Origin: Eledone cirrhosa
Taxonomy: Eukaryota
Reading direction: 5' to 3'
Length of the DNA stretch: 64,000 nt
NCBI GenBank assembly: GCA_964016885.1
Contig: OZ024742.1
Coordinates: 62,372,001 to 62,436,000 of the forward strand
How positions within the stretch are numbered: position 1 is the first letter of the stretch; every line of letters starts with the position of its first letter. The notes below the pieces were generated by a model. The model had not been told where the DNA came from and did no database searches. It saw only the letters and a program-made list of their open reading frames with translations. Of the stretch, positions 1,061 to 61,354 are shown one piece after another. The translations under genes were made by a program, and so were the position numbers.

Positions 1061-1184
1061 AGTAGAATGTAAACGTGATCTGGCCTATTCATGCCACACT
1101 ACTCCATTACTCTCTAGTAACTATTCTGACCATCACTGTACTTTATCTGAGATCAGTCCCACCCTCCTCCACTCTCATGTCACC

Positions 1185-1655
1185 CGGTCAAATGGTAGTG
1201 GTGCTAATAAGTATGTGGTGTTAGTGCTGGTCTGTTGGTGGAGGTAGTGATGTTAATAGGACGTGTGGTGTTTGTGGTTGTGTTGGTCAAATGGTAGTGA
1301 TGCTAACAAGGGTGAGGTGTTAGTGATGATATTGGTGGTGGTAGTGGTACGAATATGTGTGGTTTTAGTTGTGGTTTTGGTGATGGTATTGGTAGTGGTG
1401 CTAGAGGTGATGTGTTGCTGGAAGCGGTGTAACGTGGCATTAGTGATGGTGCTGATGTTGGTAGTAGTGTGGTTTTAGTGGCAGTGTTTGTAGTAGTACT
1501 AATAGGAATGTGGTGTTAGTGGGGATGTTGGTGGTGGAAATGTTGTAGTTTGGTTTCAGTATTGATTGTTGTCTGGGTTTCGTGGTGGTGTTGATAGTGG
1601 TATGGTTTATAGCATAGATGGTGGTATTAATAGTGTTAGTTGTTGTTGTTTATTA
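1185..1655. repeat. GTG/GTT-rich low-complexity tract
   Basis: Degenerate (GTG)n/(GTA)n; duplicated in inverted form near 31670-32140. Confidence 0.8.
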
Positions 1656-1995
1656 TCATGAGACATATATTCCAAGATATCAAGCAGCAAATTGGCAAAG
1701 TCATTATATTATTGGATAGAATTATGTGTGCTATTATTTCTGGTTTTCTGTATTCAGGGTACAAACCCTGCCAAGGAATATTTCGTCTTTCATGCTTCCA
1801 AGTCAACAAAAAAGTACCAATTTCGTACTGGTATCGATTTTTTTCTCCATATATCCTTTTACTTCCAATCTATCATTTTCTCTCATTCTCTGGAAGAAAT
1901 CGTCTTTGTTCAGACCTGGCAAAGATGAGGCTTTGCCAGTTTGACATGCCCGAGACATATTGTGACTTTAAAAATTACACCAAAATTACACATTT

Positions 1996-2396
<401 letters not shown>

Positions 2397-2419
2397 AAAA
2401 GATTCTAAGACTTCCACTT

Positions 2420-3120
2420 ATCTCACAACTTCTCTTCGCGCTGGGTGCTGATGAACTTGCTCACTCAGTCCAGCCGCCCTTCAATGTGTGGCTGGTACTT
2501 GGATGACACGATTCTGGTAGGATTGGCCGAGCCTGTTACTGAGGACCTCCAGCGGGTCATTCCTTCCTTAAGGTACCTAGGACGGAAGATCAACTCCGAG
2601 ATCGAAAATTTGAGTCGAATTCCAAGACGCTGTAGCCAGCATCGTTCCTGTCCTGACTAGGGCACTGTTGACCCCGAAGGACAACATCAGCATTTTCGGC
2701 TCTCCGATCGCCCCGAAAGCTATACGTGAGTGCCATGAAGACCTGCCCAACCGCTTCCTATTTCCTATGGTCTCTGTCGAGACGTCTGGTGTCATTGGTC
2801 GCCGAACTGCTGATCTCCTCCGTTAGTCAGATAGAAAGATGACGGCTCGCTTGAGGAGGGAGCCCCATACGGTGAAATGGCTGTTGCAGCGGGTCTCTTT
2901 GGTCATTCTTCGCGGTAACACTTTTGCCGTTTTGTCTGCAGAGCGCGGCTAAAGCACCATTTAGACTGGGGTGTAGTGATTGTCTCTCTCCGTCTCCCTT
3001 TCTTTCGTCTTTCGATCCTTCTTTCTTTTTCTCCTTTTCCTTTCCTTTTTTCTTCTTCCTTTTCTGTTCCCTTTAGTAATGTGTTTTGTTTTTGTCAAAT
3101 ACTGCTCAATTAAAAATATA
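2420..3120 (+). mobile_element. CRE-clade non-LTR retrotransposon remnant (RT + restriction-like endonuclease, internally deleted)
   Basis: WYLDD..L.G..V.EDL RT motif, then VETSGVIG...WLLQRVSLVILRGN C-terminus and a pyrimidine-rich 3' UTR. Confidence 0.7.
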
Positions 3121-3409
3121 TTAATTTGTTGTATTTAAAGTACAGATATCACTCGTAAACTCGGTCCCAGTTCAAATTCTCCCAATTTACATTATATATT
3201 GCATGTTTTAGACTTGGGTAAAATAATCAATAATCTTTAACTACTGGGTATTAAGTGGATATTAACAATATCATGGGAACCAATCAATTCTAATTAATTA
3301 AAATTACACCCGTGGTGAGGAGAATAAAAACAGATTAATGACATATTCTGCTCAAGAAATGAAATCAAGGGAGGCGATCCACAAATATTAATTGACTTAA
3401 ATTAACAAA

Positions 3410-3530
3410 TAATTGTTTCTACATTTGGCACAAGGCCAGCAATTACCCAGTGCATTACTGGTACTTTATTTTATCGACCCCGTAAGGATGAAAGGCAAAG
3501 GTAACCTCAGCGGGATTTGAACTCAGAATG
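3410..3530 (-). mobile_element. tRNA-derived SINE (octopus-type)
   Basis: B-box gagttcaaatcc plus core ctttgcctttcatccttacggggtcgataaaataaagtaccag; other copies near 4913, 9895, 26440, 27170, 28563-28810, 29530, 38475. Confidence 0.85.
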
Positions 3531-3840
3531 GCAACAAATAATGAAATAGTGTAGACCTCATATTTGTGAGGAGGTGTTGTATCCCTTGGAGTGTGGTGTT
3601 AGGAAAGTGTTGTGGTGTTAGTGGTGGTGGTGGTAGTGGTAGTGGTCAGCTGCTGTATTAGTGGTGATACTGATATTGGTAGTAATGTACACATCTGGTA
3701 ATTCATTATCAACCCCAAGTAAATGAAGACAGATTCGAACCTGACATGCCTTTAAATATCACCTGATATGTTGCTTACCTTTCTAAACATTCTTCCAATC
3801 AATTGATTTATAATAAAACTATTTTTCTTTAATTTTACAG

Positions 3841-3890
3841 AATCTTATTCAGCAGCTGATTCTTTGTCAATTTATGTAAAGTTGACATAA
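3841..3890 (+). CDS. Last coding exon of paralogue A
   Basis: Polypyrimidine tract ttttacAG; phase 1 matches the donor at 415 and gives ESYSAADSLSIYVKLT-stop; AATAAA at 4048 and 4478 downstream. Confidence 0.7.
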
Positions 3891-5299
3891 AAACTTGACA
3901 AGATTATACCACAGTATTTAAAGTAGAAGACTTTAGAGAACGAGAAAAACGACCTCTTAGTTCTACAGGACTTTCATTCACATATATTTTATAGTGGAAA
4001 CTGGTACAACTGCAACACAGGTACCTCATAAGTATAGATTACAAGATAATAAAAGTATCTTAGACGTCACATCACATAATTTAGCACATCCTATTTCACT
4101 TGAAGTGTAACACCTATGGTGGCACATTAAATGTAGAATTATATAACAGAAAACACAGGAAGAAATACCAATATTAGTATGTTTATGTGTGTGTATGTGA
4201 ATGCGTGTATGTATGTATGTATTTATGTATGTACGTATGTATGTATTTGTGTATGCATGTAAGTTAGGTCGCTCTTCAGCACTACTGGTAAAATGTAACC
4301 CAGTACAACCTGTGTATGCTTGATTCGTTGGCGACATCGTCTGTTTGTATCGTATATTTATTCAATTATTTATTAATATATTTTCTGTGTGTAACTATTA
4401 ATTAAAATAATTTAGAGGAGATTGTTATTATGTAACACCTATCTCAGTGGTACCTACTGTATCTTGGCTACACTTTCAATAAATATCATTAAATACATTT
4501 CTCTATTATTGTTTTAAATTATTTGGTGTTGATAAAACAATTTCGTATTAAAAACATTCTATAGAATATCAGCCATAATAATATTATTTTATTCTTTTGA
4601 TAGATTCAGTCATTGTCTAAATAGAAACTGTGTTGAACATAATTTCGTAACCATTAATATATTCCTGTTGAGTTTAGCAAGAGTAATCTCCATATTTGGG
4701 AATGTTTCGACTGGGATGAAATATACACTGACTCACACACACGCTCTCTTACACATACACACACACAGTCACGTACACATGCTCAAATAAACAGGATTCA
4801 GAAGAAGCCTTCAAATTTGGGAATGTTTTCACTGGGATGAAATATACAGTGACACAGGCACACACACACGCGAGAGGACACACACACACACACACAAATA
4901 CACACACACACAAGGTTGACTTTGCCTTTCATCCTTACGGAGTCGATAAAATAAAGTACCAGTAATGCACTGGGATAATTGCTGGCCGTAAATAGGAAGC
5001 TTGGGTACAATTGAAGCTGTTAGTGTGTATTGCTGTTGAGATTTATCATTTCGTCGTTGTTGAGTGGAGCTAGTGGCAGTTGATGTTGTTGTTGTTATTT
5101 GGTTTCTTATCGTTTTGATGATGCTGTTGTTGTTGATGGTGTTCATAAGCTCTGACCCTGTCAATAACACCAGTGTCAGTCTAATTATAGATTTTTGTCC
5201 TCTTCCTTTCAAATTTGTGGGAAGGGACGTTAAAGATATTCAGGTAATTAATTTGTGTTTTCCCGTCTTTTTTTTCTTTTTACTATGTTTAAAATCCTC

Positions 5300-19690: not shown

Positions 19691-22179
19691 TTTCAAGAAT
19701 TATTAATAATAGTCAATATTTTTTTCTTCTTAGTCAGTATTTTTTTCTAAATTTGTTATATGCTTGAAATGTCTTTCCAGACTTATGTAGACAAGTTCCA
19801 AATAATTCATTTTTTATAATTAATTAAATTACCATAATTGGTAATTATTAATAGAGTTTCTAAATTGCAAAGATTGCAGTTTAGTGAAATGGAAGCGTCC
19901 CGATAGGAGGCTTACTACAAGAAATTAAGTATTTAATATTTTTCTCTTTTATAGACCATATTAATTGTGATAATGAAGTAGAACATTTTTTATCTGGATT
20001 TGAGAAAGAATGTTTATGATTGGAAAAGCGAAACTTAAAGTTCGATGAAGTGGCACCTATGTAGTTATAAGTATTATTATTATTTGTCTTAATGGTACAT
20101 TTATATACTAAATTCTTATCAAGGCAATTATTTGGAAAGGGCATTCAGATTTCCTTCTACAGTTACAGTTCAATTCCCTGTTATTTCTATAACCTAAACT
20201 ATTCGTATTATCATTATTATTTCTAGGTGTTCTACTATTATTCGTATTTAAACTATTGTTATTGTTATTCACGTTAACTAATGTATTATTATTAATATTA
20301 TTGTTATCATCGCTAATTATATGCTGGTTCAAATTAAGAATTTTGCTATTAATTTTTGCAATATTTTGAGCAATATTAATGTTGAATATGAGAGTTTAAC
20401 CGTGTGTCTATTAAAGATAGAGTAATACTTATGTGATCTAGGGAAACATTTATCCAAGGCTTTAAAAAATAAATGTGCTAAAGGTGTTTTAATAGCTAAA
20501 GATGCTGGTGGGGCATAACACATTATAGATCTAGTCCTAATTCTTTTCCCCGATTTATTCCTCAAGTTGTTATTTTTACAGTCAGTTTTATTTTAATTAT
20601 TATTATTATGAATATTGTGTTTATAATTAATATTATTTCTTTCTACATATTCAATATATTTTTGCCTATCCGATCGAGTCCAAAAATCATTATTAAAGTC
20701 AATCAAGGTTCGCCTTGCCGTTAAAATAATATTAAATTCGTCACTAGATAGATTCGTGTGTTTATATGCATATGAAAGCGCCTTATTTAAAAGACTAGGA
20801 TTTATTGAGGAGTAATAACTCGCTATGTCCATTTGAATGAATTTATGATTTATCTTATTTTCGATATTATTGAACCAATCTATGACTTCAGTAGTGCCCT
20901 TCCATAAGTTAAGCCTTGACTTCAATTTTAACGTTGGCAAAATCCTATCTATTATCTTTTTACTAATTATTCCAAGGTCTGATTTGGAAGGTTCAATAAG
21001 TCTAATAGGTAAGTCCTCTTCGAAATTTCTTTTATGGTCTTTAAAATTTATACGTGGTTGCCTTGGTATGAAAGATTCGGTCTTCGGTTCTATTCCGAGA
21101 TTGGTGATAATTTCAAAAGCATCATTATTGATATCCAATAGATCCTCACTCGGGGCTTTTCTGTAATTTTTTCTCAATTCTTTTAAAATTAAGTCCTTAT
21201 ATTTTGTTTTTACTATCCCATATAGGTTGTGGGTTTTGTCTGAATTCACTAATATTTTATTTACTTTTTTTATGTCATTAATTTTTTCTCAATGACCTCT
21301 ATATATATATGTGTTTTTCTTAAATTTTATATTCCTTAATATATTAAAAATTTCGTTTTCGAAATTTTCCAAGAGTTTGTTGTACGGAGGATTTTTCCTA
21401 GATTTAAACATATCTCGAAATTATGGTTGGTGTTTTTCTTATTTGTTTCTTTATTCTTTTCAAAATGAAAAGCACGCCACCGCAGTCTTCTTATGAAGGA
21501 GTTAGTTTGTCCAATAAGTTTTCTCGTGTATTCTTCTTTAGATGGTAAAGGTATATCTTTGAGAGATGTAGAAACCCTAAAGAATTACATCATTTATTAA
21601 TTAATAATCTATTGCAGAAGAAGCGCTCTACCTTCTGGGAGCTAAATATGACCAAAGATTAATAGGGTTCATTGATTACTCAATGAATATAGTTTTACAA
21701 TAGATTAAAAACACTCTACAAAGAAGTTTTCTGGAGTTATTAATATTATTCAAAATATTAATAAATGAAGACATTCACATAATCAAAATATATGTTTTAT
21801 TAAATATATTTCGAAGGTACTGTGCTGTGTTTTCAGTACGTCCTCGTCAGATAAAATACATGAATTGATGTATGAGATACCTCAACTGTCTTGGTGGTTC
21901 AATTCCAGTATTGGCAGTGATTTATTACAACAAATCTCAACTTTTATATACCACAAATAATAACATGATAAACTTAAATATGATGAAGAAGAGGATGTGG
22001 AGCGAGATATAAGTATAAGGAGGGGGTGAGTATGAGAAAATGCAAGAAGAAATAAATAAACACATACATATATAAATATTTAAATGCGTAAATAAACGTA
22101 TTAGGGAAGAAAAAGAGAGAGAGAGGTAGATAGATAGAAGAGAAGAAAGAAGAGAGAAGAAAGAATAGAAGAGAGAAGA

Positions 22180-25634: not shown

Positions 25635-26654
25635 GGGTGTGTATGCGTATGAATGTGTGTGTATATATATGTATATATGTGTTGGTATGTGTTTGTATGT
25701 AGTATATATGGACTGTAGATACATTTACATATAGGGAAGTGAATATATGAGCCACCATGTCCCCCCCCCCCCCCTCCACCGCACTTCCTCTCCCAGAGCA
25801 ATATCAACAACACATCTTTGACAAATATTCCCAAACTATCCATCTTTTTTCTTTTTCCTGTCATCCCATTCTTATCAAGAGACAGGTATCTTACACCTCA
25901 TTAAAACCCAGACACGCACCTAAATTCATCTGTGATATAGAAATTTGTAGAAGATATTCTTTATGGATTTGGAAAGTTGAATCAGCTATGCCATTATAAA
26001 CTCATCAAAGGTCAGCTAATGAAATAAAACCAGCAGGAGAGTAGGTTTACGACCACCTTCTCAAACACCCTTATCTTACAACCTCACCATTTTCTGGGTG
26101 TATATATAGTTGTGCGTGTATATGTGCGTGTGTATGTACGCGTGTGTGTGTATGTATGTATGTATGTATACTTTAATTCCTCCGGACCTTCATCATCATC
26201 AACACTCATTAACACCACACGCCACACCCTAGACACATCCAAATCTCTCTTATATATATAGTCACACATTTCAACACAACCTGATCTCAGTTTGACAATC
26301 ACCACAGATAGACGAATGCGAGAAAGTACTCCAAGTTAACCAGGAATCTTTAAAATTCTTCCCACCGAAATTAACAACGAACTTACTGGATCTACTAACT
26401 CTTAACATTATAATATTATATTTTGTTTAAATCATAAAAGGTTAACTTTGCCTTTCATCCTTACGGGGTCGATAAAATAAAGTACCAGTAATACACTGGT
26501 GAATTTGCTGGCCTTGTGCCAAAAGTAGAAACAATTATATTATAACATTAAATCATAAAATGTTTTAACACTACAAGTGAAGTCATTCTTTTCCCTTTTA
26601 TTCAAATATACCTAACTGTACCAAGGATCGCACACATTTTCCAATATATATATA

Positions 26655-26975
26655 TATGCCTCTTTTCGTCTACTCTCACCGACGTTAGACTTGTTTTTCT
26701 TCGCTCTCCCTATCTCGCCGTCAACAAGACCTCGGACATATGTTCAGCCGTTGGTTTGACTTCTTTCTCTCTCTCACTCCTTGTTACTTACATACATGTG
26801 CTTCCCCTCGCGTCCCCCTTTTATCGGTATGTTCTCTGCTTCTTTTTCTTTTATTCTTTGTCTGGGTTTTTTCTCTCTCCTTTATTCCTTCCCCAATAAC
26901 TTTCAAAAGTTATTGACGCACTGGAGATAGACATATTGTTTAATGCGTTGAAATGTCGATGACCTCCAGCAGAAA
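26655..26975 (+). repeat. Interspersed repeat, unclassified
   Basis: Direct copy at 28095-28480 and a diverged copy at 36230-36490. Confidence 0.7.
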
Positions 26976-27391
26976 AGTGAAGAGAATCAATTATTAATAT
27001 TAGAAAAACTCAGATTACATATATATATATATAATAATATATGTAGAATAAACACAGTGAATTCTGTGTCTAAAATTACGAGGGTAGAGAATACCACAAA
27101 TGTTTTATATATTTAACCTGAATCTTACGTAAGATTCAGGTTAAATATATAAAGCAAATGTTGTATTCACTAGGTCAGCAAATACCCATTACATTACTGG
27201 TACTTTATTTTATCGACCTCGTAAGGATGAAAGGCAGAGTTAACCTCGTCGGGATTTGAACTCGGATCGTAAAGGGACGTAACTATGCTGGAAAGCATGT
27301 CCGACCCTATACCGATACTGCCAATTCACAATAACATTCGATTCGTTTGCAATTGTCCATTTTATTTGCTTTCCTTTTATTTCTAAATACA

Positions 27392-27628
<237 letters not shown>

Positions 27629-27840
27629 AGAAAAACCACAAACCCTCCATCTCAATTCTACTTTTGAAAAGCACAAGAACTGCGAAACCGGTAAAGGAAC
27701 TAAATAAATATTTTAAAAAAGAATCCAGTTGCATTTTCGATTTCATCTTTTTTCCTTATATATATATATATCCAGGAAAAACTTGAACTGTTAAGATCTT
27801 CTTCCTGGAGATGTCAATATTTATAAAACAAACTTTGTAT

Positions 27841-27900
27841 TTTATCTGATGAGTGCGTACCAAAGTTTTGTTACCCTTGAAATATATATAATGGAATAAA
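27841..27900 (+). ncRNA. Hammerhead-like motif (same family as 47004-47068)
   Basis: tttat-CTGATGA-...ccttGAAA-tatatata-atggaata; stem II degenerate. Confidence 0.55.
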
Positions 27901-27937
27901 TATGGTTTTATAAATATAGTTACCATTTATTTAATAT

Positions 27938-27991
<54 letters not shown>

Positions 27992-28198
27992 GTAATCTGA
28001 GTTTTTCTAATATTCATAAAACATTCGATTCGTTTGGAATTGTGCAAACGAATTGTTTCTTCTAAATTTTTATTAATTTTTTACTGTGACCTGTTATTCC
28101 TTTTCGCCTACTTTCGCCGAGGTTAGACTTCATTTACTTCGCTCTCACTATCTCGCCGTCAATAAGACTTCGGACATATGTTCAGCCGCTGGTTTGAC

Positions 28199-28284
<86 letters not shown>

Positions 28285-29291
28285 TGCTTACATACATGTG
28301 CTTCTCCCCGTGTTCCCCTTTATTGATATGTTCTCTGCGTTTTCTTTTCTTTTTTCCTATCCGTTTAATTTTTCTCTCTCTTCTTTTTCGCTTCCCCAAT
28401 AACTTTCAAGAGAATTTGACGCACTGGAGATAGACATATTGTCTATTATGCGTTGAAATGTCGGTGACCTCCAACAGACAATATATATATATATATATAC
28501 AAATAAAATACAGAGTCACTAACTCATATGGATATTCTGCAATTAACAGCTCAAAATATATATTTGACTTTGCCTTTCATCCTTACGGGGTCGATAAAAT
28601 AAAGTACCAGTAATGCACTGGGTAATTGTTGGCCTTGTGCTTAAAGTAGAAACAATTATATAATAATATCGACCCCGTAAGGATGAAAGGCAAAGTTAAT
28701 CCCGCCGAGGTTAACTTTGCGTTTCATCCTTACGGGGTCGATAAAATAAAGTACCAGTAATGTACTGGGTATTTGCTGGCCTTGTGCCTAAAGTAGAAAC
28801 AATTATATAATATGTAGAAATAAACACAGTGAATTCTGTGTCTAAAATTACGAGGGTAGAGAATACCACAATTGTTTTATATATTTAACCTGAATCATAC
28901 GTAAGATATAAAACATTGTTCATAAGATATAAACATTTTTCATATACAGACCGTATCAATAACTATTTCATCTGTCGGACAGATTAGAGATTTAATCTGT
29001 TTCGCCATGAAAATTGTGTTTATAACAGATAATCCGTAGGCTTTCCTCAGCTAGAGATGGGATCAAATGAAACAAAACACATGTAACTACAATTCACAGG
29101 AGTGAATATCACACCTCGTGCATTGGGCGTTATACGTGGTGTGAGTGGATATGCTAGAAATAATAGCCTCATTACACTCAACTTATAAGCTCACCTTGTT
29201 AGGGAGCCGAAATACAAATAAAATACAGAGTTACTAACTCATATTGATACCCTGAAATTAACAAGCTCAAAGTATAAATACTGAGCATTAT

Positions 29292-29490
29292 ATAATAATA
29301 TATGTAGAAATAAACACAGTGAATTCTGTGTCTAAAATTACGAGGGTAGAGAATACAACATTTGCTTTATATATTTAACCTGAATCTTACGTAAGATTCA
29401 GGTTAAATATATAAAACATTTGTGGTATTCTCTACCCTCGTAATTTTAGACACAGAATTCACTGTGTTTATTTCTACATATATTATTATA
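29292..29490. repeat. ~200-bp near-perfect palindrome
   Basis: Centre aatcttac|gtaagatt at 29390/29391; partial copies at 27030-27168 and 28805-28910. Confidence 0.9.
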
Positions 29491-30630
29491 TATATATATA
29501 TGTAATCTGAGTTTTTCTAATATTAATAATTGATTCTACTTTTGGCACTAGGTCAGCAAATACCCATTACATTACTGGTACTTTATTTTATCGACCTCGT
29601 AAGGATGAAAGGCAAAGTTAACCTCGTCGGGATTTGAACTCGGATCGTAAAGGGACGTAACTATGCTGGAAAGCATGTCCGACCCTATACCGATACTGCC
29701 AATTCACAATAACATTCGATTCGTTTGCAATTGTACAAACAAGCCTCATTATTAAGCCATGTCAGTAGAATGAACCCTTCATTCTTGCCCATGTGTTGGC
29801 ATGATTTAATACATAAATGGCTTCTACAAGACTAGAACTGTTTAATTCGGAGGAAAGCTGACTGTCAATGTAATATGATGGCATTTATACATTTTGTGGT
29901 GGTAGGGGAGGGTGGTGATTGGGATAGGTGGAGGGTCATTGGCTGATGGATTTAAAGAAAGGGGATTCTTTGAAAAAACTATATTTAGAGAAAAATACAT
30001 ACTGATACAAAAACAAAGTTATATTCACGGTAAGTACCTATAGACAAACACTTACACACTGACAGACACTCGTTATTTTCAAGGTTCATTTATTCTAGGG
30101 AAACAAAGGATTTTCATTGAGTGGCAATATTAACATGCTCTGCTAAAGGATGGTGAGGTCTGCAAAAATTGTCAGAAGTCTACAATCAGCCCCCCCCCCC
30201 CGCCCTCAAACACACGTATATATATATTTTTTTTCAAGGTTCAATTATGCTAAGCAGACTAAAGAATTTTTTGTAAGTGGCTGCATTAACATGCTGTGTT
30301 AAAGTTTACAAAATGGTCAGTTCTTTACACTCACACACAACCACACACGCGCGCAGGCACACACTCACGCACACACACATACACACACATATGTGTACAT
30401 ATACATACACACATATCTATAAATACCCACATATATACATATGTATATACATATATACATATATACACATAAACAAATATACATATACACACACATATGT
30501 ATATATATATACACACAGACACACATATATATATATACACACACATATATACATTCATACATACATACACACAGACACACACAGACATATATATATATAT
30601 ATACATATATACATATATATATACATATAT

Positions 30631-31645
30631 ATATTTATTAAAATAACAGATTAAAGTTTAAGCAAAGAATCGCTGCTTTCACCCTTAACGGGATCTTCTG
30701 AAACAAACAAAGTCAATCTATAAACGCAGAAGTGGATATTTCAAAAAACGTTGCAACCGGAGGAAGACAGGAAGACGAGACTTTGGTTCGTGGAAACGTT
30801 CGCTGGCAAAGAACGGGAAAAAACGAATAATACGTCATTAATAGGAGCGGTGAAAAACAATTACGCGCAAAGACAGAACCACGTTTATGGTATAAAAGAG
30901 GTCGTAGACTAATGTTCTCTTAGGTGGTGCATAGAGACGTTCTCTGGCAATGAACGAAAAAACGAAGATAATAAGTCATATGTGGTGCGTGCAGAACAAT
31001 AGCACGCAAAGACAAAACCACGTAAATGGTATAGCAGAATTTGTAGACTAAAATTCTAACTAGGAGACCAAATGAATCTCCGCTACAGAGTTAAGAACAA
31101 AGTAAATAAATACAATACAGAAGTAATAGAAACAAATAAATACATACACGCAAACAGATACGTACATAGACAAGCATACGCAAAACCTTACCATAGGTAT
31201 ACAAAACCACGCACATATAAATATGTGTGTGTGTCTATGCTTGTTACAAATAAATAAATAAATATATAAACGTATATAAGTAAATAAATACGTATATAAC
31301 AAGCGCACAGATTATACCTACAAATAAATACACGAATGTTCGGAGACGTAAGTCAACTAAAATAAGAAGTACACATATACACACACCCACCATACGTACG
31401 AACCTGCATACTCACGCAGACGCAAAACTCCCGTATACACATAGCGAAACCCTAAATACCAGAATATGTAAAAATTATACGCCATAACAGTCACATATAC
31501 GTACGAAAAGGTATACATACCTTCACAAAACATACGGGTAATATATACTTACCTATGCAAATAAGTAAAGGAATAAACAAAACATATACTTAGCTCCCAC
31601 ATCAGGACGTAAAATATCCACGTATAGATCGTGCTATCCGTTAGG
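30631..31645 (-). mobile_element. Naiad-like PLE 3' UTR/pseudo-LTR, inverted copy of 34549-35570
   Basis: Reverse-complement match along ~1 kb. Confidence 0.9.
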
Positions 31646-31646
31646 G

Positions 31647-33089
31647 TCTTGGAATATATGTCTCATGATAATAAACAACAACAACTAACACTATTAATAC
31701 CACCATCTATGCTATAAACCATACCACTATCAACACCACCACGAAACCCAGACAACAATCAATACTGAAACCAAACTACAACATTTCCACCACCAACATC
31801 CCCACTAACACCACATTCCTATTAGTACTACTACAAACACTGCCACTAACACCCTACTACTACCAACATCAGCACCATCACTAATGCCACGTTACACCGC
31901 TGCCAGCAACACATCACCTCTAGCACCACTACCAATACCATCACCAAAACCACAACTAAAACCACACATATTCGTACCACTACCACCACCAACATCATCA
32001 CTAACACCTCACCCTTGTTAGCATCACTACTATTTGACCAACACAACCACAAACACCACACCCCTATTAACATCACTACCTCCACCAACAGACCAGCACT
32101 AACACCACATACTTATTAGCACCACAACCATTTGACCGGGTGACATGAGAGTGGAGGAGGGTGGGACTGATCTCAGATAAAGTACAGTGATGGTCAGAAT
32201 AGTTACTAGAGAGTAATGGAGTAGTGTGGCATGAATAGGTCAGATCACGTTTACATTCTACTATTAATAGACAAGTGTCCTCCAGTACGGCATGCTGCCA
32301 ATCCTTGTTGTTCTTTAATATCTTTGTCATGAGATTTAGTTTCCTAAGTTCAGTCTCCACTTCTTCATTCCTTCTCTTACAGTATCTACCTTTTGCATGA
32401 GTCCCATTCACTGATATTTCTCCGTATTTCTTTATACAGTTGCTATCCTCCATATGCATCACATACTCATACCATTGCAGGCTTCTCTCTTTCACACTAC
32501 ATCGGTTTCCTCTTATGCCTAGTTTTTCTCACAGTTCACGTATGCTGCATTGTTCATGCACACTAACATTGAACATCAACCAGAGCATACTCGCTTCATT
32601 TCTTTCCAGCCATCACAGATCTTGTACAGTCAAGGCATTGCAGTTCATATGCGGATATCATCTATTTTACCCCTACCTAGCATAATGCCAAACTGTATTT
32701 TATCTAGCTTCAATATGTTCCTAATTAATTGTACTATAACTCTTGATAATTTTCATGAGCTATTCCTTCAACTTGATACCTATGTAGTTACCGCTGATTA
32801 GAACATCTACTTTATCCTTGTAGCAGTTACAACCATTGGGTGAGAAAAAGACATGTTGTATAGTATAGTCTTGTACTGGCTTAAAATAAGTTACAGGAAT
32901 AAACACATACCTTGTGTCAAATCTGTTCTTGTCATTTTGTTTGAATACACAATTTCTGGATATTTAAGAGGGTCTTTCAAGCAAGGATTAAACTTTTGAT
33001 AAACCATCATCCATCCAATAGAATCATTACAATTGTTCCTTTTGTGTGAAATGTGGAATCTTACACTCCTGAAATACACACGTACAAAC

Positions 33090-33127
<38 letters not shown>

Positions 33128-33216
33128 TAAAGTTTAAACAAAGAATCGCCGCTTTCACCCTTAACGGGATCTTCTGAAATTTATCATTTATTATTAGTTT
33201 TCAAATTTATTATTAT

Positions 33217-33266
<50 letters not shown>

Positions 33267-33366
33267 ATATATTGATATATAAGAAAGTAAGTCCATAGAA
33301 TCATTTGATCAAATATATACAGTATTTATCCTCCCAATCACCATAATTAACCACACAAAATCAATT
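31647..33366 (-). repeat. Inverted duplicate of window positions 1-1677
   Basis: Near-identical reverse complement; duplicated ORFs in the track (831..1247 versus 32076..32495 and others). Confidence 0.95.
32911..33068 (-). pseudogene. Orphan copy of exon 258-415
   Basis: 158 bp, open frame, AG and GT intact; no other exons of the gene seen on this strand. Confidence 0.8.
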
Positions 33367-33872
33367 AAACGAGGCTATAAGTTTAAAATGTACCTATGAA
33401 GAAACACTAGATAAATAAATGATAGCTATTTTATCCGCGATCAACAGCCACAGAAAATGTACCCAGTATTTCTAATAGCCCGTAGAAATTGATTAGACAT
33501 ATAGCCAACCATACACAATTAGGTACAAAATCAAAGTTAGAAGAAAAAATGTACAAAAACATACCAAAATTATGTTTCTACCCCATCAGGTTTCATTCGC
33601 TTTTTGGAAATATCCGATCATGGATAAATTCACGAGTTTCGAAATCATCAGGAAACAAACTCAATTGGACAACGATTTTTCTTAAATGATCCCCGCCAGA
33701 AACGAATTCAAAATGGCTAAGAATTGTCACATGGCCAGTGGTCAAGTCAGAAAGCTGATTGGGAGAAGAAATACTGAATATATTTTATCAAATGATTCTA
33801 TGGACTTACTTTCTTATATACTGCTCTGATTGTTGATTATTTAATTAATTAATTCATCATTGAGCCACACCG

Positions 33873-33920
<48 letters not shown>

Positions 33921-34110
33921 TCCGTCTAGTTTATGTATAGGTAAACCTATATATTTTATATACTCCCGTATGGTTGAGTAACAACACTTTAGGCAGTATT
34001 CGGCTGCGCTTTATAGCAACCAGCCTACTCGCCGTCAGGCACCAATCACATGCATGTATATGTATGTATGTATACACTAAGTATGTATGTATGTATACAC
34101 ATGTAGTTAG

Positions 34111-35570
34111 TACTAACTGTAATTGTAGGAATCGGGTTGATTGCCCCCTACCCGAGAAATGCCTCTCTAGTAACATTGTCTACAAATGTAAGGTTGTAAC
34201 ACCCACGTCCCATAGGGCCTACATAGGGTTAACTGCAAATAGATTCAAGCAGCGTCTTTACACGAATACCTATTCTTTTCGTTACCCTCTAAGAAGGAAT
34301 ATGACGTCACTTTCAGCTTATATCTGGAGTCTAAAAGACAACCACACCCAATAGAAGTTACACTGGGAGATCCTAGCTAGGGCTAGATCGTATAACGGAA
34401 ATAAAAGGCCATGTGACCTCTGCAACGCTGAGGCCCTGGAAAAATACTCAAAGCCACAGACCACATCTTAAACAAAAAATCTGAGGCAATTTCGGCTTGT
34501 AAACATAAATTGCACAAAACTTTCTTGTATTACAGCCGCACTTTATATCCTAACGGATAGTACGATTTATACGTGGATATTTTACGTCTAGATGTGGGAT
34601 CTAAGTATATGTTTTGTTTATACCATTACTTATTTGCATAGGTAAGTATATATTACCCGTATGTTTTGTGAAGGTACGTATACCTTCTCGTACGTATATT
34701 TGATTGTTTATGTTATGGCGTATAATTTTATATATTCTGGTACATATGGTTTGGCTATGTGTATACGGGAGTTTTGCGTCTGTGTGAGTATGCAGGTTCG
34801 TACGTATGTAGGTGTGTGTATATGTGTACTTCATGTTTTGGTTGACTTACGTCTCCGAACATTCGTGTATTTACATGTAGGTATGTGTGTGCGCTTGTTA
34901 TATACGTATTTATTTATTTATATACGTTTATATAATTATTTATTTATTTGTATACACGCATAGACACACACACATATTTATATGTGCGTGGTTTTGTATA
35001 CCTATGGTAAGTGTTTTGCGTATGCTTGTGTATGTACGTATTTGTCTGCGTGTATGTATTTATTTATTTCTATTACTTCTGTATTGTATTTATTTACTTT
35101 ATTCTTAACTCTGTAGCGGAGATTCATTCGGTCTCCTAGTTAGAATTTTAGTCTACGACTTCTGCTATACCATTTACGTGGTTTTGTCTTTGCGTGCTAT
35201 TGTTCTCCACGCTCCACATATGACGTATTATCTTCGTTTTTTCGTTCATAGCCAGAGAACGTCTCTATGAACCACCTCAGAGAACATTAGTCTACGACCT
35301 CTTTTATACCATAAACGTGGTTCTGCCTTTGCGCGTAATTGTTTTTCACCGCTACTATTAACGACGAATTATATTCGTTTTTTTCCGTTCTTTGCCAGCG
35401 AACGTTTCCACGAACCAAAGTATCGTCTTCCTGTCTTCCTCCGGTTGCAACGTTTTTTGAAATATCCACTTCTGCGTTTACAGATTGACTTTGTTTGTTT
35501 CAGAAGATCCCGTTAAGGGTGAAAGCAGCGATTCTTTGCTTAAACTTTAATCTGTTATTTTAATAAATAT
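34111..35570 (+). mobile_element. 5'-truncated Naiad-like PLE: GIY-YIG endonuclease + 1-kb 3' UTR
   Basis: CNCRNRVDCPLPEKCL..IVYKC..AYIGLT..FKQR..SLSAYIWSLK..CDLC; hammerhead-like end at 35501. Confidence 0.9.
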
Positions 35571-36127
35571 TTGCTCTTCGGTTCTTATATATTTGATATA
35601 TATTTTCCTTATCAAGCCCTCTTTGGATTTAGTCTTCAATTTTATTATTATTACTATACATATATATATACATATATACATATAATTTCTGCACCGATCT
35701 CTAGCAGAATAAACTTTCACTTTTATTGATATCTCTAACCTTGAGATGAATGACTATTCTGAGTCTCCTGGAAGTCTACGGAATACGAAATAGCGCTATA
35801 GGGTCTCTAATAATTTCATCTAGAGTACATATTCTTCTCTGTAATATGTAGTATATATACAATACACTGTCTTTGGATATATGTGTCCTACTCTCTCTAT
35901 ATATGTATATACATTTTACATTTGACTTATTATTGCTGTGAATAATGTCTGTAGCAAGGCGGTCAGCAGTGAAATAAAAAGGTCTATAAGAAATCAGAAG
36001 GCGTTTTGATTGAAAACAAACATAGGAACTTATTAAGTCATGTGACAAGCATGACTAATGCAGAATAGGTGACAAAGATGTAGAAATCTAGCAGCAACTG
36101 AAATATTCAGTTTAAATTTTCGAGCCT

Positions 36128-37390: not shown

Positions 37391-37527
37391 ACCTAAGCCA
37401 AAGAATCACACATAATTTACTTTTCATCATTTTGGTGGTGGATACAATTTGGTTGACAATATCACACATCCATAAAATATTGTGGCTTTATGTCTAAACA
37501 AAGTGAAAATTCTTCTTTTCAGATACA

Positions 37528-37855
37528 ATGATGTCAAAGAAATGTTGGCAACCTTTAATAATAATTTTATTGATGTTCCACTGTATATCACATTCTTCTA
37601 ATTCTAATACCAACATTGGTTCCTATTTTCATCGGCTGAAAGGAAAAGGTATTATACATACTGATGAACTGACAAAAACATACCCTGTCATATTTGTTAA
37701 TGCCGTATTTGAATGTATTCAGCATTGCATTAGTATGCCCTATTGCAGTTATTTTACTTACTATGATAAAAGCTGTGAGATATTTCATGCCTGGCAAGAT
37801 AGTATTGCTGTGATACCATCAACAATACACCAGAGTTATTATTCAGTACATGAAG
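37528..37855 (+). CDS. Paralogue B coding exon 1: signal peptide + PAN/Apple-like domain
   Basis: Acceptor ttcttttcAG at 37522; hydrophobic N-terminus; ECIQHC...YCSYFTY..KSCEI cysteine pattern; donor G|GTAAGT. Confidence 0.85.
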
Positions 37856-38199
37856 GTAAGTAAAATCATTTTTCAAACTAATTTTTTTAATGATAAATTA
37901 ATAGTAATGTGGGATTATTGATTAGTCACCAAAGGTCATATACAGTAACTGCTATCAATTCAGTATTTCTAGTTCAATTACCTGAGTACATATCTTGTTA
38001 ATCAATAACCTTTGAACAACACTTGATTTCAATATTTTAATAGAAATTCATTAGTTGTTGATTTTAAGTTTAATTTCTTGTAGAATGTAGTTGTTCATGA
38101 GTAATATCAACACAAGTGATGTAGTAGGATAACAAGCAGACTAAGAATAAAGGAAGATTTTGTATGCAATAGATGAACAGCAATAATCGATAGTAAGAG

Positions 38200-45778: not shown

Positions 45779-45978
45779 NNNNNNNNNNNNNNNNNNNNNN
45801 NNNNNNNNNNNNNNNNNNNNNNNNNNNNNNNNNNNNNNNNNNNNNNNNNNNNNNNNNNNNNNNNNNNNNNNNNNNNNNNNNNNNNNNNNNNNNNNNNNNN
45901 NNNNNNNNNNNNNNNNNNNNNNNNNNNNNNNNNNNNNNNNNNNNNNNNNNNNNNNNNNNNNNNNNNNNNNNNNNNNNN
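45779..45978. other. Assembly gap (200 N) after a long (TA)n tract
   Basis: Run of N. Confidence 1.
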
Positions 45979-52557: not shown

Positions 52558-55500
52558 TATATATATAAACGTTTGTATTTGTAAAGCCAAAACAATGCAG
52601 GTCTGGATATAGAATATAAATGCAAATGCAAAAGATAATGTTGACAATTAGTCTTTTACCTTAAATTTATTTAAATATCCTTAATTTTCGAGATAATATC
52701 TCTTCTTCGGAAGTAAGTAAAGTTGTTAAACCAGCGTTCTAAATAGCTTGCCAAGTCATGCTCACAGGAAATGGTATAGGGAATCTGTTCTATCTCTAAT
52801 GTCAAAGAGTGAAGGTTAGGTGGATAAAGAGTAGTCTCCCTTTAAAAGGGGTTTTGTACATGTATGTTTAAGTGTGTGGGAGAATACGTGAAGTGTAAGT
52901 ACGTGTGTGTGTGAGTGTGAGAAGATATGTCTATACGTGAATGTGGGGGATAGATGCTCTATCGTATTAAAACTGGTCTTTGTGTGTGTGAGAGAGAATA
53001 AGTGGAGGTGTAAGCGTGTGTATGTGTGTGTGTGTGCGTGTGTGAGTGCGGGTGCGTGTCTGTGAGAGGGGGTGTAAGTATGGGGCTATGTGCTCTATCC
53101 AGTTATAAATTGGGTGTTGAGTTCTAGTCTATTATTGATTGGTGGTTGTGTTTTGTCTATAATCAGTGCTTCCTTAATTCTAAGATTGCCGAGGTTTCTT
53201 TCCTTAGTTTCTATCCTAACTGTTATGTTTTGTCAGTGTTTTTGAATTTCACTAGGTGTTTCTTAAATGAGGAAGTGTTAGTATTGAGGTGTACTTTTAT
53301 TCTTATGTGAAGTGGTCTGGTGGTGCTACCTACGTAGAAGTAGCTGCATTTGTCGCACTCTAAACTGTATACCACGTAAGCCTGGTGGCATAGGTCTGTG
53401 TCGTTGATGGAGCAGTTGGCTAGCCTGCAGCGACTGTCATGTCTGGTGGAGTGTCTTTTGGTTACCTGTCCGCGTAGAGAAGGTCCTGAGTGGGCTAGTT
53501 GGATATCTAGTCGCTCTCGTCTGATAGCTCTGCGGATGGCTGTTGTTGTTTCCTCACTGAAGTGTGGGAGCTTCAGGAAGCAGGTGTTAGTGCCTCGGGT
53601 GTGGTGTCCTCTGTTCTTTCTGGCACGGTTCTTGGTGGACGTCGGGTATCCGTTCAGTTTGAGTACTTCCAGGAAATGTGTGGTGTGTGTGTGTCGGTCT
53701 CTAGAGTCTGTGCATTTGTTCCGGATACGTGTTAGTTCGTTCCTTATGTATCCGAACTTAGCGCCGGGTGGGAGGGCCGATCTGAAATGTACAAACAGGT
53801 TCCTGCTGGCGGCTTTTTTATAGAAGCAGGTGTGGATGTTGTCTTCGTCTGTTACCCTGAATTGGAAGTCCAGTAGGGATAAGGATCCGTGGTCATCGGG
53901 GTGTTCCATGCTGAACTTTATATTGGCGTCCATGCTGGAGAATGTCGTGTATATTTTATCCACCTCCTCACGGAATGAAGTAAGGATGAGTATGTCATCT
54001 ACATATCGGGTGAAGAAGGTATGGGAATGGCAGGTGTTGGGGGCTCAGCATTCTAGCTGGTTCATATAGGTGATAGCGAGCAGGCCCGATAGGCTGGATC
54101 CCATGGGTAATCCTGTTGTCAGTCTGTATGTGTGGTGGTGGAAGGTGAAGTACGTGTTGTCCACTGTGAAGAACAAAAGCTGGTGTATGTCCGTAGGATG
54201 AAGGCCGTAGCAGTGGATGTCTTCTGCAACCACGCAGTCCGCCAATAAATCGACAGCTGGATGAGCGGGGACTGTAGTGTAGAGGGAGGCAACGTCGAGG
54301 CTAAAGGCGTATCTATTTAGTTTAAGTTGTTCTGGTTGGAGTTGGTGTAGTCTACGTATGACTTCGTCGGAGCTACTGACATGCCCGGGAAAGGTGGAGA
54401 GTAGAGGCTTGAGGACCTGGGAGAGGAGCCAGGAGATTTTGTATAGGGGTCCTTCTATGCTAGAAACGATGGGTATTATTTGCGTCGTAGTACTATTCTT
54501 GTGGGTCTTGAGACACACGCACCACACATTTCCTCGAAGTACTCAAACTGAACAGATACCCAACGTTCACCACGAACCGTGCCAGAAAGAACAGAGGACA
54601 CCACACCCGAGGCACTAACACCTGCTTCCTGAAGCTCCCACACTTCAGTGAGGAAACAACAACAGCCATCCGCAGAGCTATCAGACGAGAGCGACTAGAT
54701 ATCCAAGTAGCCCACTCAGGACCTTCTCTACGCGGACGGCTAACCAAAAGACACTCCACCAGACATGACAGCCGCTGCAGGCTAGCCAACTGCTCCATCA
54801 ACGACACAGACCTATGCCACCAGGCTTAAGTGGTATACAGATTAGAATGCAACAAATGCACCAACTTCTACGTAGGTAGCACCACCAGACCACTTCACAT
54901 AAGAATAAAAGAACACCTCAATACTAACACTTCCTCATTTAAAAAACACCTAGTGAAATGCAAAATCACCGACAAAAACATAACAGTTAGAATAGAAACT
55001 AAGGAAAGAAACGTCGGCAATCTTAGAATTAAAGGAAGCACTGATTATAGACAAAACAACCACCAATCAATAATAGACTAGAACTCAACACCCAATTTAT
55101 AACTTGATAGAGCACCTAGCCCATACTTACACCCCACCCCCCATACACACACACGCACTCACACACACACACACACATACACGCGCGCGCTTACACCTCC
55201 ACTTATTCTCTCACACGCACACATACACACACACATACACACACAAAGACCAGTTTTAACACGATAGAGCGTCTATCCCCCACATTCACGTATAGACATA
55301 TCTTCTCACACTCACACACACACACACACATACTTACACCTTCACGTATTCTTCCACACACTTAAACATACATGTACAAAACCCCTTTTAAAGGGAGACT
55401 ACTCTTTATCCACCTAACCTTCACTCTTTGACATTAGAGATAGAACAGATTCCCTATACCATTTCCTGTGAGCATGACTTGGCAAGCTATTTAGAACGCT

Positions 55501-55670
55501 GGTTTAACAACTTTACTTCCCTCCGAAGAAGAGATATTATCTCGAAAATTAAGGATATTTAAATAAATTTAAGTTAAAAGACTAATTGTCATCATTATCT
55601 TTTGCATTTGCATTTATATTATATATCCATACCTGCATTGTTTTGGCTTTACAAATACAAACGTTTATAC
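52558..55670 (-). mobile_element. Penelope/Poseidon-type PLE with inverted 3' duplicate
   Basis: - strand RT (FSLDVASLYT, GLPMGSSLS, RYVDD) and GIY-YIG (VVY...YVGST.RPL..RI); 54515-55670 (+) is the reverse complement of 52558-53690. Confidence 0.92.
55518..55556 (+). ncRNA. Variant hammerhead motif in pLTR
   Basis: CCGAAGA-a-GAGAT att ATCTC-GAAA-ATTA-agga; mirror copy at 52678-52712 (-). Confidence 0.55.
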
Positions 55671-56702: not shown

Positions 56703-59650
56703 GTTTACAATGACGTCAGGAGTACTATTACTGTTATTATTACTCAATATTGGAAGGAAGAGATTTAGTATTTAATATTTTGTTGTTGTGTTTAGAGATG
56801 ATGTTGGAAATATTGGAGGATGTAGAATACGAAAATTTGATGGTGTGTTTGTTAAATATTTTACTATAGATATGTGAGGGAGGGAAGCATTTATTTAAGG
56901 CACTAAAAAATAATTTAGGAATATTGTTATTAATAGAGATGGAGAAAGGAGCATTATACCAGATTATGTTTTTGTATCTAGGTCTTTTATTAAAATTATT
57001 GGAATGGTTATGATTAAATATTCTACTGTAAGTTTTCCTAGAATTTGTTTCTTTATTATATTTGATTTTATCTGGATAGCCGGCTTTAGAAAGTGCGTTA
57101 TTATAGTAATTGGCGTTAGCATCAAAGATGTTTTTATTAGAAGATATGTTAGATATTCTATTTCCAATATTATTAACTATAGCATTCTTGATATTGGTAG
57201 GATGGTTAGATTTAAAGTTAACATAATTAAGATTCTCATTGTTTTTATGGTAAGGGTAATATAGATTAATGTTAGATTAATCGCCCCCTCTAAATCTGAT
57301 CTGGGGGTTGTTAGTAAAGCCATCTTGGATAGGATTATCCCACAGGTTAGTTCTAATTGCTCTTCTTTAAACCTAAATTTATGGTTTGGTACTTCTGAAG
57401 TGATTGGCTGGTTCAACAAATTGGATAATAAAAACAAACTAAAATTTATTCAATTCGATATTGCCAGCTACTATTCCTCCATTTCGCCTTCACTTCTCAA
57501 TAATGCTCTATCTTTCGCACTTAAATATTCTGACATCACCACAGATGAACTTCACATCATCCTCACCGCACGTAAAACCATCCTAGAGTTCAACAACGAA
57601 TATTGGACCAGAGCCGATACCTCTAACAACTTCGACATCACAATGGGAGCATCCGATTCATCCCAATTGAAAACAAAATATTAAATACTAAATCTCTTCC
57701 TTCCAATATTGAATTTCATAATAACAGTAATAGTACTCCTGACGTCATTGTAAACCCTAGGCTAACTTCTGTAAACCCAAATGCAACATCAAACACAACT
57801 TCGCTAAATGTTCATAATCCAACTCTAAATCAAGAAACTATTATTCCTATTATTCCTATCACAAACAACTTCTCCAATCCAATTCCTTCTATAGATAACA
57901 CTAGATCACTCATTAATAATCTCTCTAATTGCAACTGCCGCATTAAAAATAAATGTCCTCTCAACAACCATTGCCTCGATAAAAACTTAATTTATGAATG
58001 TAAAATTATAACTAGCACCAATTCCTTCACCTATTTTGGCTCCACTTCCACCTCTTTTAAAGCTCGTCTCTATAATCATCATTCATCTTTCAAATACAAA
58101 CTTAAAAGAACTAACACTGCTCTCTCAGAACTCATATGGTCCTTAAAAGACAAAAACATTAAATATAACATCTTTTGGAAAAAGATTTCTTCTGCATCCT
58201 CGTACTTGAACAGCTCTCTATCTAAAATCTGTAATCTCTGCCTAAATGAAAAATTTACCATTATCTCTAACCTAGAATCCATAATAAATAGACGCTCGGA
58301 TTTGTTTTCTATCTGCCTGCATAAATTCCATAGAACTTTTCACAAAGTATACAGTTAATATTCAATTCTTTATCAATTTAGAATCTTTTCTCAAAGGCAC
58401 ATATACATACACCTCTTTAAAATATACCCATCTACCTTACTTTAAAGGGCATTATACACTCTATAATACTCGTTTACTCATTACCCTCATTCTATCTTCT
58501 CGTAAAACAATAACATTTGTTTTTGACATTTTGAATATTCATCCGCAATCATTATTATTTTTTCTCTCTATCATAAATCTTTTTAATCTCAATTTCATCC
58601 TTAATTTATTATTATATATTTTTTTAATATATACTCATATATTCTTTAAAATATACCCATCTACCTTACTTTAAAGGGCATTATACACTCTATAATACTC
58701 GTTTACTCATTACCCTCATTCTATCTCCTCGTAAAACAATAACAATTGTTTTTGACATTTTGAGTATTCATCCGCAATCATTATTATTTTTTCTCTCTAT
58801 CATAAATCTTTTTAATCTCAATTTCATCCTTAATTTATTATTATTTTTTTCTCCCCATCAACGAACTCATTATTAATACATATGAATTCAATATACAAAC
58901 TTTAACTTCACATTATTTTTCTCAAATCCTTCTACACATAAACTTTTTCTCTTTGCTAATTTTAAAATTCCTACATTTCTTCTTTTGACGTTAGAATATT
59001 CACCCACAATTATTATTTTTTTCTCTCTATCTTCATACATAATTTCCCTTCGTTAATTTTCAAATTCCTTTAATTTATACATTATCTTCCAACAGTTCCC
59101 AACCTCTCTATATTAAAACATTATATCTTTTTCTCAGTTATAAAAACTATCTCTTTCTCTCTATCACCCATCTCTCCCTTTCCACCTTCACTCTCATCTC
59201 CTCCCCTTTTTTTCATCCTTTCCAACCCCCCCCTCCCTAAATATAATATATTTTTTCCTCGCACATATCCTCCCTTCGTTAATTTTCAAAATTTTTAATT
59301 TATACAGTATCTTCCAACGGTTTTCAACCCCTCTATATAAAATATATCTCCTCTCAGTTATAAAAACTATCTCTTTCTCTCTATCACCCATCTCTCCCTC
59401 TCATCTCCTTCCCTTTTCATCCTTTTCTCTCCCCCCCCCTCTCTAAATAAAATATTTTTCCCAATATCACACATCAATCTAAAACCACTTTTCATATGTT
59501 GATTTAAAACTGCACTATCAACAAGTCTTTTTTAGCCTTCATATCATGTTCTCCTGTTTTATCTGATGAAAACACAAATATTATTGTTTGATGGTGTTTG
59601 TTTTTGAAATGCGCATAATAAAATATATTGAACTCCTTTAACCATCTTTT
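56703..59650 (+). mobile_element. Rearranged Naiad-like PLE
   Basis: RT piece 57265-57665 (KFIQFDIASYYSSI), GIY-YIG 57930-58358, linker region inverted at 56703-56990, 3' UTR with a 230-bp tandem duplication at 58413-58850. Confidence 0.88.
59557..59623 (+). ncRNA. Type I hammerhead ribozyme motif at PLE 3' end
   Basis: ttttat-CTGATGA-aaacacaaata...tgtttgttttt-GAAA-TGCGCAT-a-ataaaa. Confidence 0.7.
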
Positions 59651-61126: not shown

Positions 61127-61284
61127 TTACCAACTATTTCTACTTTCACACAAAATAAAAGCATGTAATGATTCTATTGGTTGGATGATGGTGTTTAATC
61201 CCTACAGTACTTGCTTGAAAGAACCACTTAAGTGGCCAGAAATTTTATACTCAAACAAAAAGACAAAAACAGATCTGACACAAG
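61127..61284 (+). CDS. Paralogue B coding exon 4 (gene continues beyond window)
   Basis: tttcAG ... G|GTATGT; phase 2 fits the exon ending at 41547; YQLFLLSHKIKACNDSIGWMMV...TDLTQ. Confidence 0.85.
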
Positions 61285-61354
61285 GTATGTATTTATGCAT
61301 CTAATTTATTTTCAGCCAGTACAAAACTCTACTGTACAATACAATGTGTCTTTA

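Follow-up and report, generated by a model that had tools for sequence, protein, structure and literature searches.

Structure of the insertion and its copied centre

The locus described here lies in a 64,000-nt stretch of the Eledone cirrhosa genome (GenBank assembly GCA_964016885.1, contig OZ024742.1, positions 62,372,001 to 62,436,000 of the forward strand), which we call the window. Between 30632 and 35655 the window carries two inverted arms of a Penelope-like element (PLE) family and, between them, a segment of copied host DNA that includes an exon. A preliminary description, made from the window alone, had interpreted the part from 33177 to 30631 as a host exon captured between two hammerhead-like PLE ends. 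With the whole locus in view, 30632–35655 reads as a single 5.0-kb head-to-head Penelope-like insertion with an abnormal centre. Coordinates are window positions, negative numbers being upstream of the window; 120 kb upstream and 80 kb downstream of it in the 3.0-Gb assembly were also examined.

The unit has the short end of the family at its left and the tailed end at its right. Outside each end stands one copy of a 23-bp, C-interrupted TA repeat (30609–30631 and 35656–35678), a candidate target-site duplication. In a control, a comparable repeat was found in 4 of 240 mismatched pairs; a repeat containing C or G was found in 0/16 true pairs, the targets of which are plain TA.

The left arm (30632–31646, − strand) is PLE 3′ untranslated region (UTR), running from the last four codons of the open reading frame (ORF) to the short 3′ end. 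It aligned with the right arm over 30631–31645 versus 35570–34549, in agreement with the 1-kb inverted arms previously described around the cargo. The closest dispersed copies differed from the left arm at 22 of 1012 sites. A local element at about +89 kb was rejected as its source, being absent from the 40 best matches, with dispersed copies closer.

The source of the centre was found at the left edge of the window. Positions 1–1677 formed an inverted repeat with 33366–31647 (95.9% identity including indels), and the match reached base 1. When the upstream DNA was added, donor −2237 to 1677 corresponded to copy 35570 to 31647, inverted, at about 98% identity. The duplication extends 2.2 kb beyond the upstream edge of the window; the copied amount is 3.7–3.9 kb and the donor is about 30 kb away. 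The copied segment had been given as 216–1677, which proved too short: it runs from −2237 to 1677 and also includes the motif at 33177, a nest of repeats and the + strand PLE.

At the donor (in-window part 1–1677, + strand), a − strand PLE (−2237 to −767) is followed by pieces of a second repeat family, a tiny head-to-head PLE insertion (86–220), the exon (258–415) and the intron. About 47 bp separate a PLE-family end from the start of the exon, close to the earlier figure of about 45 bp. Next to the left arm, the copy holds the host intron (31647–32910, − strand, from donor 416–1677) and the 158-nt exon (32911–33068, − strand, from donor 258–415). These are followed by the tiny same-family insertion (33120–33240, from donor 86–220), with its motif end on the − strand and a 42-bp tail piece on the + strand, and by nested pieces of the second, high-copy repeat family (33276–34053), also present at the donors.

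The motif at 33177 is part of the tiny insertion and is present in both donors. No breakpoint lies there, and the duplication goes 2.4 kb past it. Because the duplication reaches −2237 and these parts already stood at the donor, this motif was carried along as a passenger, as was the greater part of the + strand PLE. Raw genomic DNA, including microsatellites and nested repeats, makes up the cargo, and signs of splicing and of poly(A) are both absent from it.

Donor and copy are each present twice because of a tandem duplication of 52–53 kb (about −62900 to 41660), which holds the donor and the whole insertion twice. Within it, the 9-kb block with the insertion is 99.8% identical and other parts are 93–98% identical. 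Either a recent unequal crossover or the tandem assembly of two haplotypes could account for this. Over intron and exon, the two copies of the insertion differed at 0 of 1434 positions. Substitutions separated the copy from donor A at 14 of 1431 positions and from donor B at 18 of 1425, and the donors from each other at 16 of 1422. In an older paralogue of the insertion site (about −84100 to −82560), the flank is folded back on itself and the same microsatellite holds another insertion. An allele without the spacer was not seen.

Two sources within the right arm

The arms belong to the same PLE family, as stated before, but differ at 5.0% of sites and represent two subfamilies. In normal pairs, 164 of 8647 sites (1.9%, pooled) differed between arms. 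The subfamilies were defined by closeness to the donor (subfamily 1) or to the left arm (subfamily 2).

From 34102 to 35384 (+ strand, from −767 to about −2050 of the donor), the right arm contains the putative GIY-YIG-type endonuclease end of the element and its 3′ UTR and is of subfamily 1. Its overall divergence from donor A was 2.2%. At the subfamily-diagnostic columns between 34561 and 35225, four of which represent one indel, it was donor-type at 24/24. Two further alleles are shared with the donor lineage: that at 35367 occurred in 0 of 68 dispersed segments and that at 35384 in 4 of 67.

The right arm continues into the family tail (35571–35655, + strand), which is missing in all three donor-lineage copies: donors A and B and a paralogue at −59k end at the short end. 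Tail base 35640 is T, which was found in 18/18 left-arm-type copies and in 0/9 donor-type copies. This test is not circular, because the position is missing from both the donor and the left arm. Judged from these diagnostic bases, the right arm switches source between 35385 and 35570 (+ strand), an interval that contains a hammerhead-like motif (35501–35545).

The new junction

The junction at 31646/31647 is sharp. A single base at 31647 is common to donor position 1677 and the PLE, giving a 1-nt overlap four codons before the PLE stop, as expected from the earlier placement of a sharp junction at the last codons of the ORF. The paralogues are unbroken through 1677, and 31646/31647 is therefore the derived junction. 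It is present twice in the assembly.

Independent material over 31300–33080 consisted of one other sample, represented by three contig sets, and a single run of restriction-site-associated DNA. Among the pieces listed for this sample, loose contig ends at the junction showed both the donor continuation and the PLE continuation. Compared with the two donors over 1422 nt, the copy has eight substitutions of its own. The independent contigs had the donor base at five of these eight sites; at the other three, at least one contig set had the copy base or no difference was listed. The junction may be polymorphic for presence and absence.

The Penelope-like family

A copy of the family elsewhere (L045) has a single open frame of 499 aa with a YRDD motif, of the PLE reverse transcriptase (RT) type. 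In the Atlas neighbours of this frame (0.93–0.98), HTH_animal occurred in 14–63% of members and RVT_1 in 16–48%. A Pfam search of the family ORF gave no RT match. The frame at 33941–34354 has a Cys linker followed by an IVY...YIG...R pattern, which we take to be a candidate GIY-YIG endonuclease; Pfam gave no GIY-YIG match for it. The 3′ UTR of the family is unusually long (1 kb), and in the right arm it contains two 137-bp tandem units, 77% identical (35142–35274 and 35281–35417).

Copies of the family terminate at the short end (35570) or past a tail of 85–100 bp. Head-to-head arrangement was found at 27 of 55 dispersed loci, and pairing of a short with a long end was the commonest (17/27). 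The junction spacers ranged from −9 to +2 nt (overlaps of 0–9 nt), and one junction held 30 element-derived nt. TA repeats flanked both ends of all 16 complete insertions checked. A tandem pseudo-long terminal repeat (pLTR) arrangement, with the 3′ end and tail again upstream of the ORF, was present at two loci (L061 and L120).

The preliminary description proposed a search for other host fragments between such ends, and no such case recurred in 40 sampled head-to-head pairs. Host spacers were absent from all 27 pairs at the 55 dispersed loci, and 18 unpaired 5′ ends followed for 9.8 kb had no partner with captured DNA. A further 13 opposite-strand motif pairs were taken from the first 100 matches on another contig (C1). 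Eleven were free of spacers; in the spacers of the other two, nothing pointed to duplicated host DNA. One of these ended in a dispersed repeat (only its last 358 bp were searched); the second contained a dispersed repeat and single-copy DNA, for which no duplicate was found.

At locus L121 a PLE arm is interrupted by a secondary insertion of 3.9 kb (675–4557), of which the last 358 bp belong to a dispersed repeat and the ends look Helitron-like. Other remnants of PLE-like RT and endonuclease sequence lie in the window at 52564–55669, 56740–58358 and 20108–21288, one of them with 1.1-kb inverted arms.

The hammerhead-like motif

The motif near the PLE 3′ end (30654–30704 in the left arm, − strand) contains C3, G5, A6, G8, A9, a bulged base, a 3-bp stem and GAAA. 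The two motifs on the exon-bearing strand, given earlier as identical, agree at 52 of 54 nt. Core position 4 was A in place of U in 12/12 full-motif copies in 264 kb, a departure from the CUGANGA core. The G10.1–C11.1 closing pair is missing, and C–G with an extra U takes its place in the sequence and in the centroid fold. The passenger motif at 33177 has lost its stem I partner and is degenerate.

The likeness to a hammerhead claimed in the preliminary description held up, in that a relaxed-core pattern, chosen after the motif was seen, matched 3 of 3000 shuffles. No hammerhead was among 114 Rfam matches at E ≤ 1, and U4 and the G10.1–C11.1 pair are lacking. Folding of four motif copies was not better than that of shuffles (z −0.10 to +0.69). 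On this sequence evidence, the motif is probably a hammerhead relative. Its self-cleavage is doubtful, and it has no part in the breakpoints.

The exact A4 motif matched 23,367 times genome-wide. Because the motif occurs about once in 130 kb, and often within TA repeats, its presence next to an exon is unremarkable. The U4 form, with a canonical core, matched 779 times. All six examined (L107–L112) were fold-back junctions, in which a head-to-head join inside the motif itself produces a canonical-looking core. A sister subfamily with the canonical core was therefore rejected. Truncation seems to favour the start of the motif. Other families have minimal hammerhead-like motifs with a canonical core at 12920 (−), 13433 (+) and 48746 (−), and the first two point outward, like a head-to-head pair.

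The host exon and neighbouring genes

The exon (donor 258–415, copy 33068–32911) is open in frame, has phase 2-1 and AG/GT sites, and is followed by 1262 nt of intron. The inverted copy of an intact exon with unspliced intron, previously described, was thus found. The exon is frame-asymmetric. In its new place it is intergenic and antisense to the neighbours on the + strand, with the next PAN-domain exon 1.85 kb further on.

Among 40 scored matches of the exon query there were four near-identical copies and seven paralogous ones, all within 0.5 Mb on the contig of the window. The remaining matches were to intron repeats, and none was a dispersed copy of the exon. The exon had no Pfam or Atlas match, and no RNA data set was listed as carrying it. 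The exon-peptide query was out of frame and was used only for locating paralogues.

Downstream, 37507–37860 and 61136–61285 belong to a tandem cluster of genes that have a PAN domain (Pfam PAN_1, E = 4e-6) and a start resembling a signal peptide. We infer from their order that the two exons are in one gene. Identity to the upstream paralogue is 98% for the PAN exon at 37507 but only 71% for the later one at 61136, a contrast that a crossover chimera would show. Elsewhere in the window, short direct and inverted repeats, some 99% identical, are densely nested at 26400–29740, and an assembly gap of 200 N lies within a TA repeat at 45779–45978.

Origin of the unit

We interpret the central 3.7–3.9 kb, with moderate confidence, as most probably the product of homology-primed DNA synthesis on the genomic donor, within one head-to-head Penelope-like insertion. 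Insertion of a subfamily-2 element into the TA repeat would have left two arms, one of 1 kb with the short end and a short one with the tail. In the integration intermediate, or following a later break in the middle of the palindrome, the tailed arm would have had a free inner end. This end would have paired with the donor PLE end, 95–98% identical, at the switch interval (35385–35570). Synthesis would have proceeded through the donor PLE and 2.44 kb of its flank (repeat nest, exon and intron), and the new end would have been joined to the left arm at one shared base. The later 52-kb tandem duplication would then have copied the whole unit. The exon is a bystander.

The involvement of a PLE, proposed earlier, was supported: host DNA lies between both ends of an apparent single integration, and both breakpoints are in or at PLE sequence. 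The chance of a random landing within 33 kb in a 3.0-Gb genome is about 2e-5 by simple arithmetic. Because the donor is close, a DNA template fits at least as well as RNA. The proximal donor and the homology or microhomology at the junctions are those of repair-mediated duplication of the SDSA type (synthesis-dependent strand annealing). Of the template switching invoked before, the switch itself was retained, with a right arm that changes source near its 3′ end.

Several observations weigh against homology-primed synthesis on DNA. The candidate target duplication is of low complexity, the subfamily typing of the tail hangs on one base, and the junction was bridged by none of the 24 listed pieces (of 2009) of the independent sample. 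Base 35496T is common to both arms and was found in 0 of 70 dispersed segments elsewhere. We gave it less weight because a common allele at 34963 suggests later arm-to-arm conversion, from which the 35496 allele may also come. Private changes numbered 11/826 in the left arm and 5/827 in the right (P = 0.14), not significant as to timing. The repair duplications described in PMC2671141 reach only 619 bp. Finally, the structure alone would be the same for a DNA template and for nascent pre-mRNA.

An RNA-based route accordingly has to be weighed; we judge it unlikely. Here the left-arm cDNA would jump at 31646 to pre-mRNA of the neighbouring host gene, still nascent and unspliced, copy intron, exon, repeats and antisense donor PLE, and anneal to the tailed arm via the shared PLE end. 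The same final structure is predicted, the − strand of the copy is the sense direction of the host gene, nascent RNA would likewise be local, and the 1-nt overlap resembles the normal junctions of the family (0–9 nt). PLEs have also been reported to move intron-containing host genes (PMC3846280). On the other hand, germline transcription and 3.9 kb of unspliced template are required, and priming through at least 70–190 bp of homology would be simpler than through one base. With a donor 29 kb away and with neither splicing nor poly(A), the insertion is not unlinked and has no RNA hallmarks. Nor can the jump be routine, since none of the 27 + 13 head-to-head pairs contained duplicated host DNA.

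An ordinary inverted segmental duplication of the donor, with left arm and tail from separate later insertions or conversions, is improbable. The preliminary description had named such a duplication, reaching far upstream with breakpoints unrelated to PLE ends, as its counter-case; the duplication does extend 2.2 kb beyond the window, yet the breakpoints lie in or at PLE sequence. The region is prone to rearrangement (the 52-kb tandem, inverted paralogue blocks and mosaic alleles between the donors), and arms 5% apart, against 1.9% in normal pairs, would be expected. Three coincidences would be needed, namely complementary short and long ends, a tail of the left-arm subfamily and the 23-bp repeat at both ends.

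An assembly artefact joining PLE and donor chimerically is more improbable still. The unbridged junction in the listed contigs, the loose ends with both continuations and the donor base at five of eight copy-private sites are what it would give. A re-used donor read would not carry eight private substitutions in 1422 nt against both donors, and the junction stands twice in the assembly. With 24 of 2009 pieces listed, the contigs show presence and not absence, and presence/absence polymorphism would account for the unbridged junction.

That 33177–30631 is a ribozyme-bounded 2.5-kb RNA unit serving as an exon-shuffling vehicle, the central proposal of the preliminary description, is highly improbable: two motifs do flank the exon on the − strand, hammerhead-like beyond chance under the relaxed core, but the duplication continues past 33177 without a breakpoint, the upstream motif is a degenerate passenger at both donors that lacks a stem I partner, U4 is replaced by A in all window copies, and the exon is frame-asymmetric (phase 2-1), with near-identical copies all in one gene cluster and none dispersed among the 40 scored matches.

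The locus records, as a single fossil, an event of a known kind and is not an exon-shuffling vehicle; it reveals no new element, ribozyme unit or gene. It is well resolved, with the source of every segment traceable, including a template switch inside the 3′ end of one arm. It bears on the closure of head-to-head PLE insertions, described as unresolved in PMC8557442. It also shows how PLE ends, where they are dense, can act as handles for local duplication in tandem gene clusters.

We suggest tentatively, as a possibility we hold to be less than even, that Penelope integration intermediates are sealed by any homologous sequence nearby, the free arm end taking a neighbouring copy (DNA or nascent pre-mRNA) and copying kilobases beyond. 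If true, a single integration would duplicate neighbouring DNA in inverted orientation, exons included, and enclose it in a target duplication. The family has more than 23,000 ends that could act as handles, and gene fragments would be duplicated repeatedly by this route in the Eledone cirrhosa genome, and the fossil would be a read-out of the PLE second-strand step.

Comparison with known systems

Local capture between inverted PLE arms was not reported in the literature searched, and the parts available of bioRxiv 10.64898/2026.07.22.740005 and PMC13282606 held nothing on capture. A natural PLE hammerhead with U4 replaced by A was also not found in that literature; the supplements of PMC4209133 may list such core variants.

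Metazoan PLEs carry minimal type I hammerheads, in which the G10.1–C11.1 pair is stressed (PMC4209133). The motif here shares with them the position near the 3′ end, the C3/G5/A6/G8/A9 and GAAA boxes, a bulge after A9 and the many solo and opposite-strand pairs. It differs in having A4, no G10.1–C11.1, a 3-bp stem II and a 4-bp non-palindromic stem III.

A standard insertion of an endonuclease-containing (EN+) PLE has an inverted 5′-truncated copy, a tail and a bias to (TA)n targets or microsatellites (PMC8557442). The head-to-head arms, the tail at one end only and the TA-repeat target are found here too. The tail is about 85–100 bp, compared with 30–40 bp in EN+ PLEs, and host DNA occupies the centre.

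Local capture with microhomology is a described signature of repair-mediated duplication (PMC2671141). In the unit, as in SDSA-type duplications, the donor is local and was copied into a transposon, the junction has microhomology and exons are bystanders. Those duplications are 50–619 bp long and mostly less than 5 kb from the donor, whereas here 3.7–3.9 kb came from 29 kb away, with one end primed in long transposable-element homology.

Host DNA between PLE repeats has been described in a rotifer (PMC3846280, PMC6431247). In Adineta vaga, intron-containing host DNA with an NRPS (non-ribosomal peptide synthetase) gene was captured between Penelope pLTRs, and Pen1 spacers are also described (PMC3846280). 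Common to that case and ours are host DNA with introns set between PLE ends, one end inverted, and a tail that may be absent; a target duplication is present there and a candidate one here. The Adineta gene lies between two direct pLTRs, has no internal sequence in common with the element and is at a new location (PMC3846280). The Eledone unit, in contrast, has inverted arms, one of them made up mostly of the donor PLE copy, and carries only a gene fragment, which lies within 30 kb of its source.

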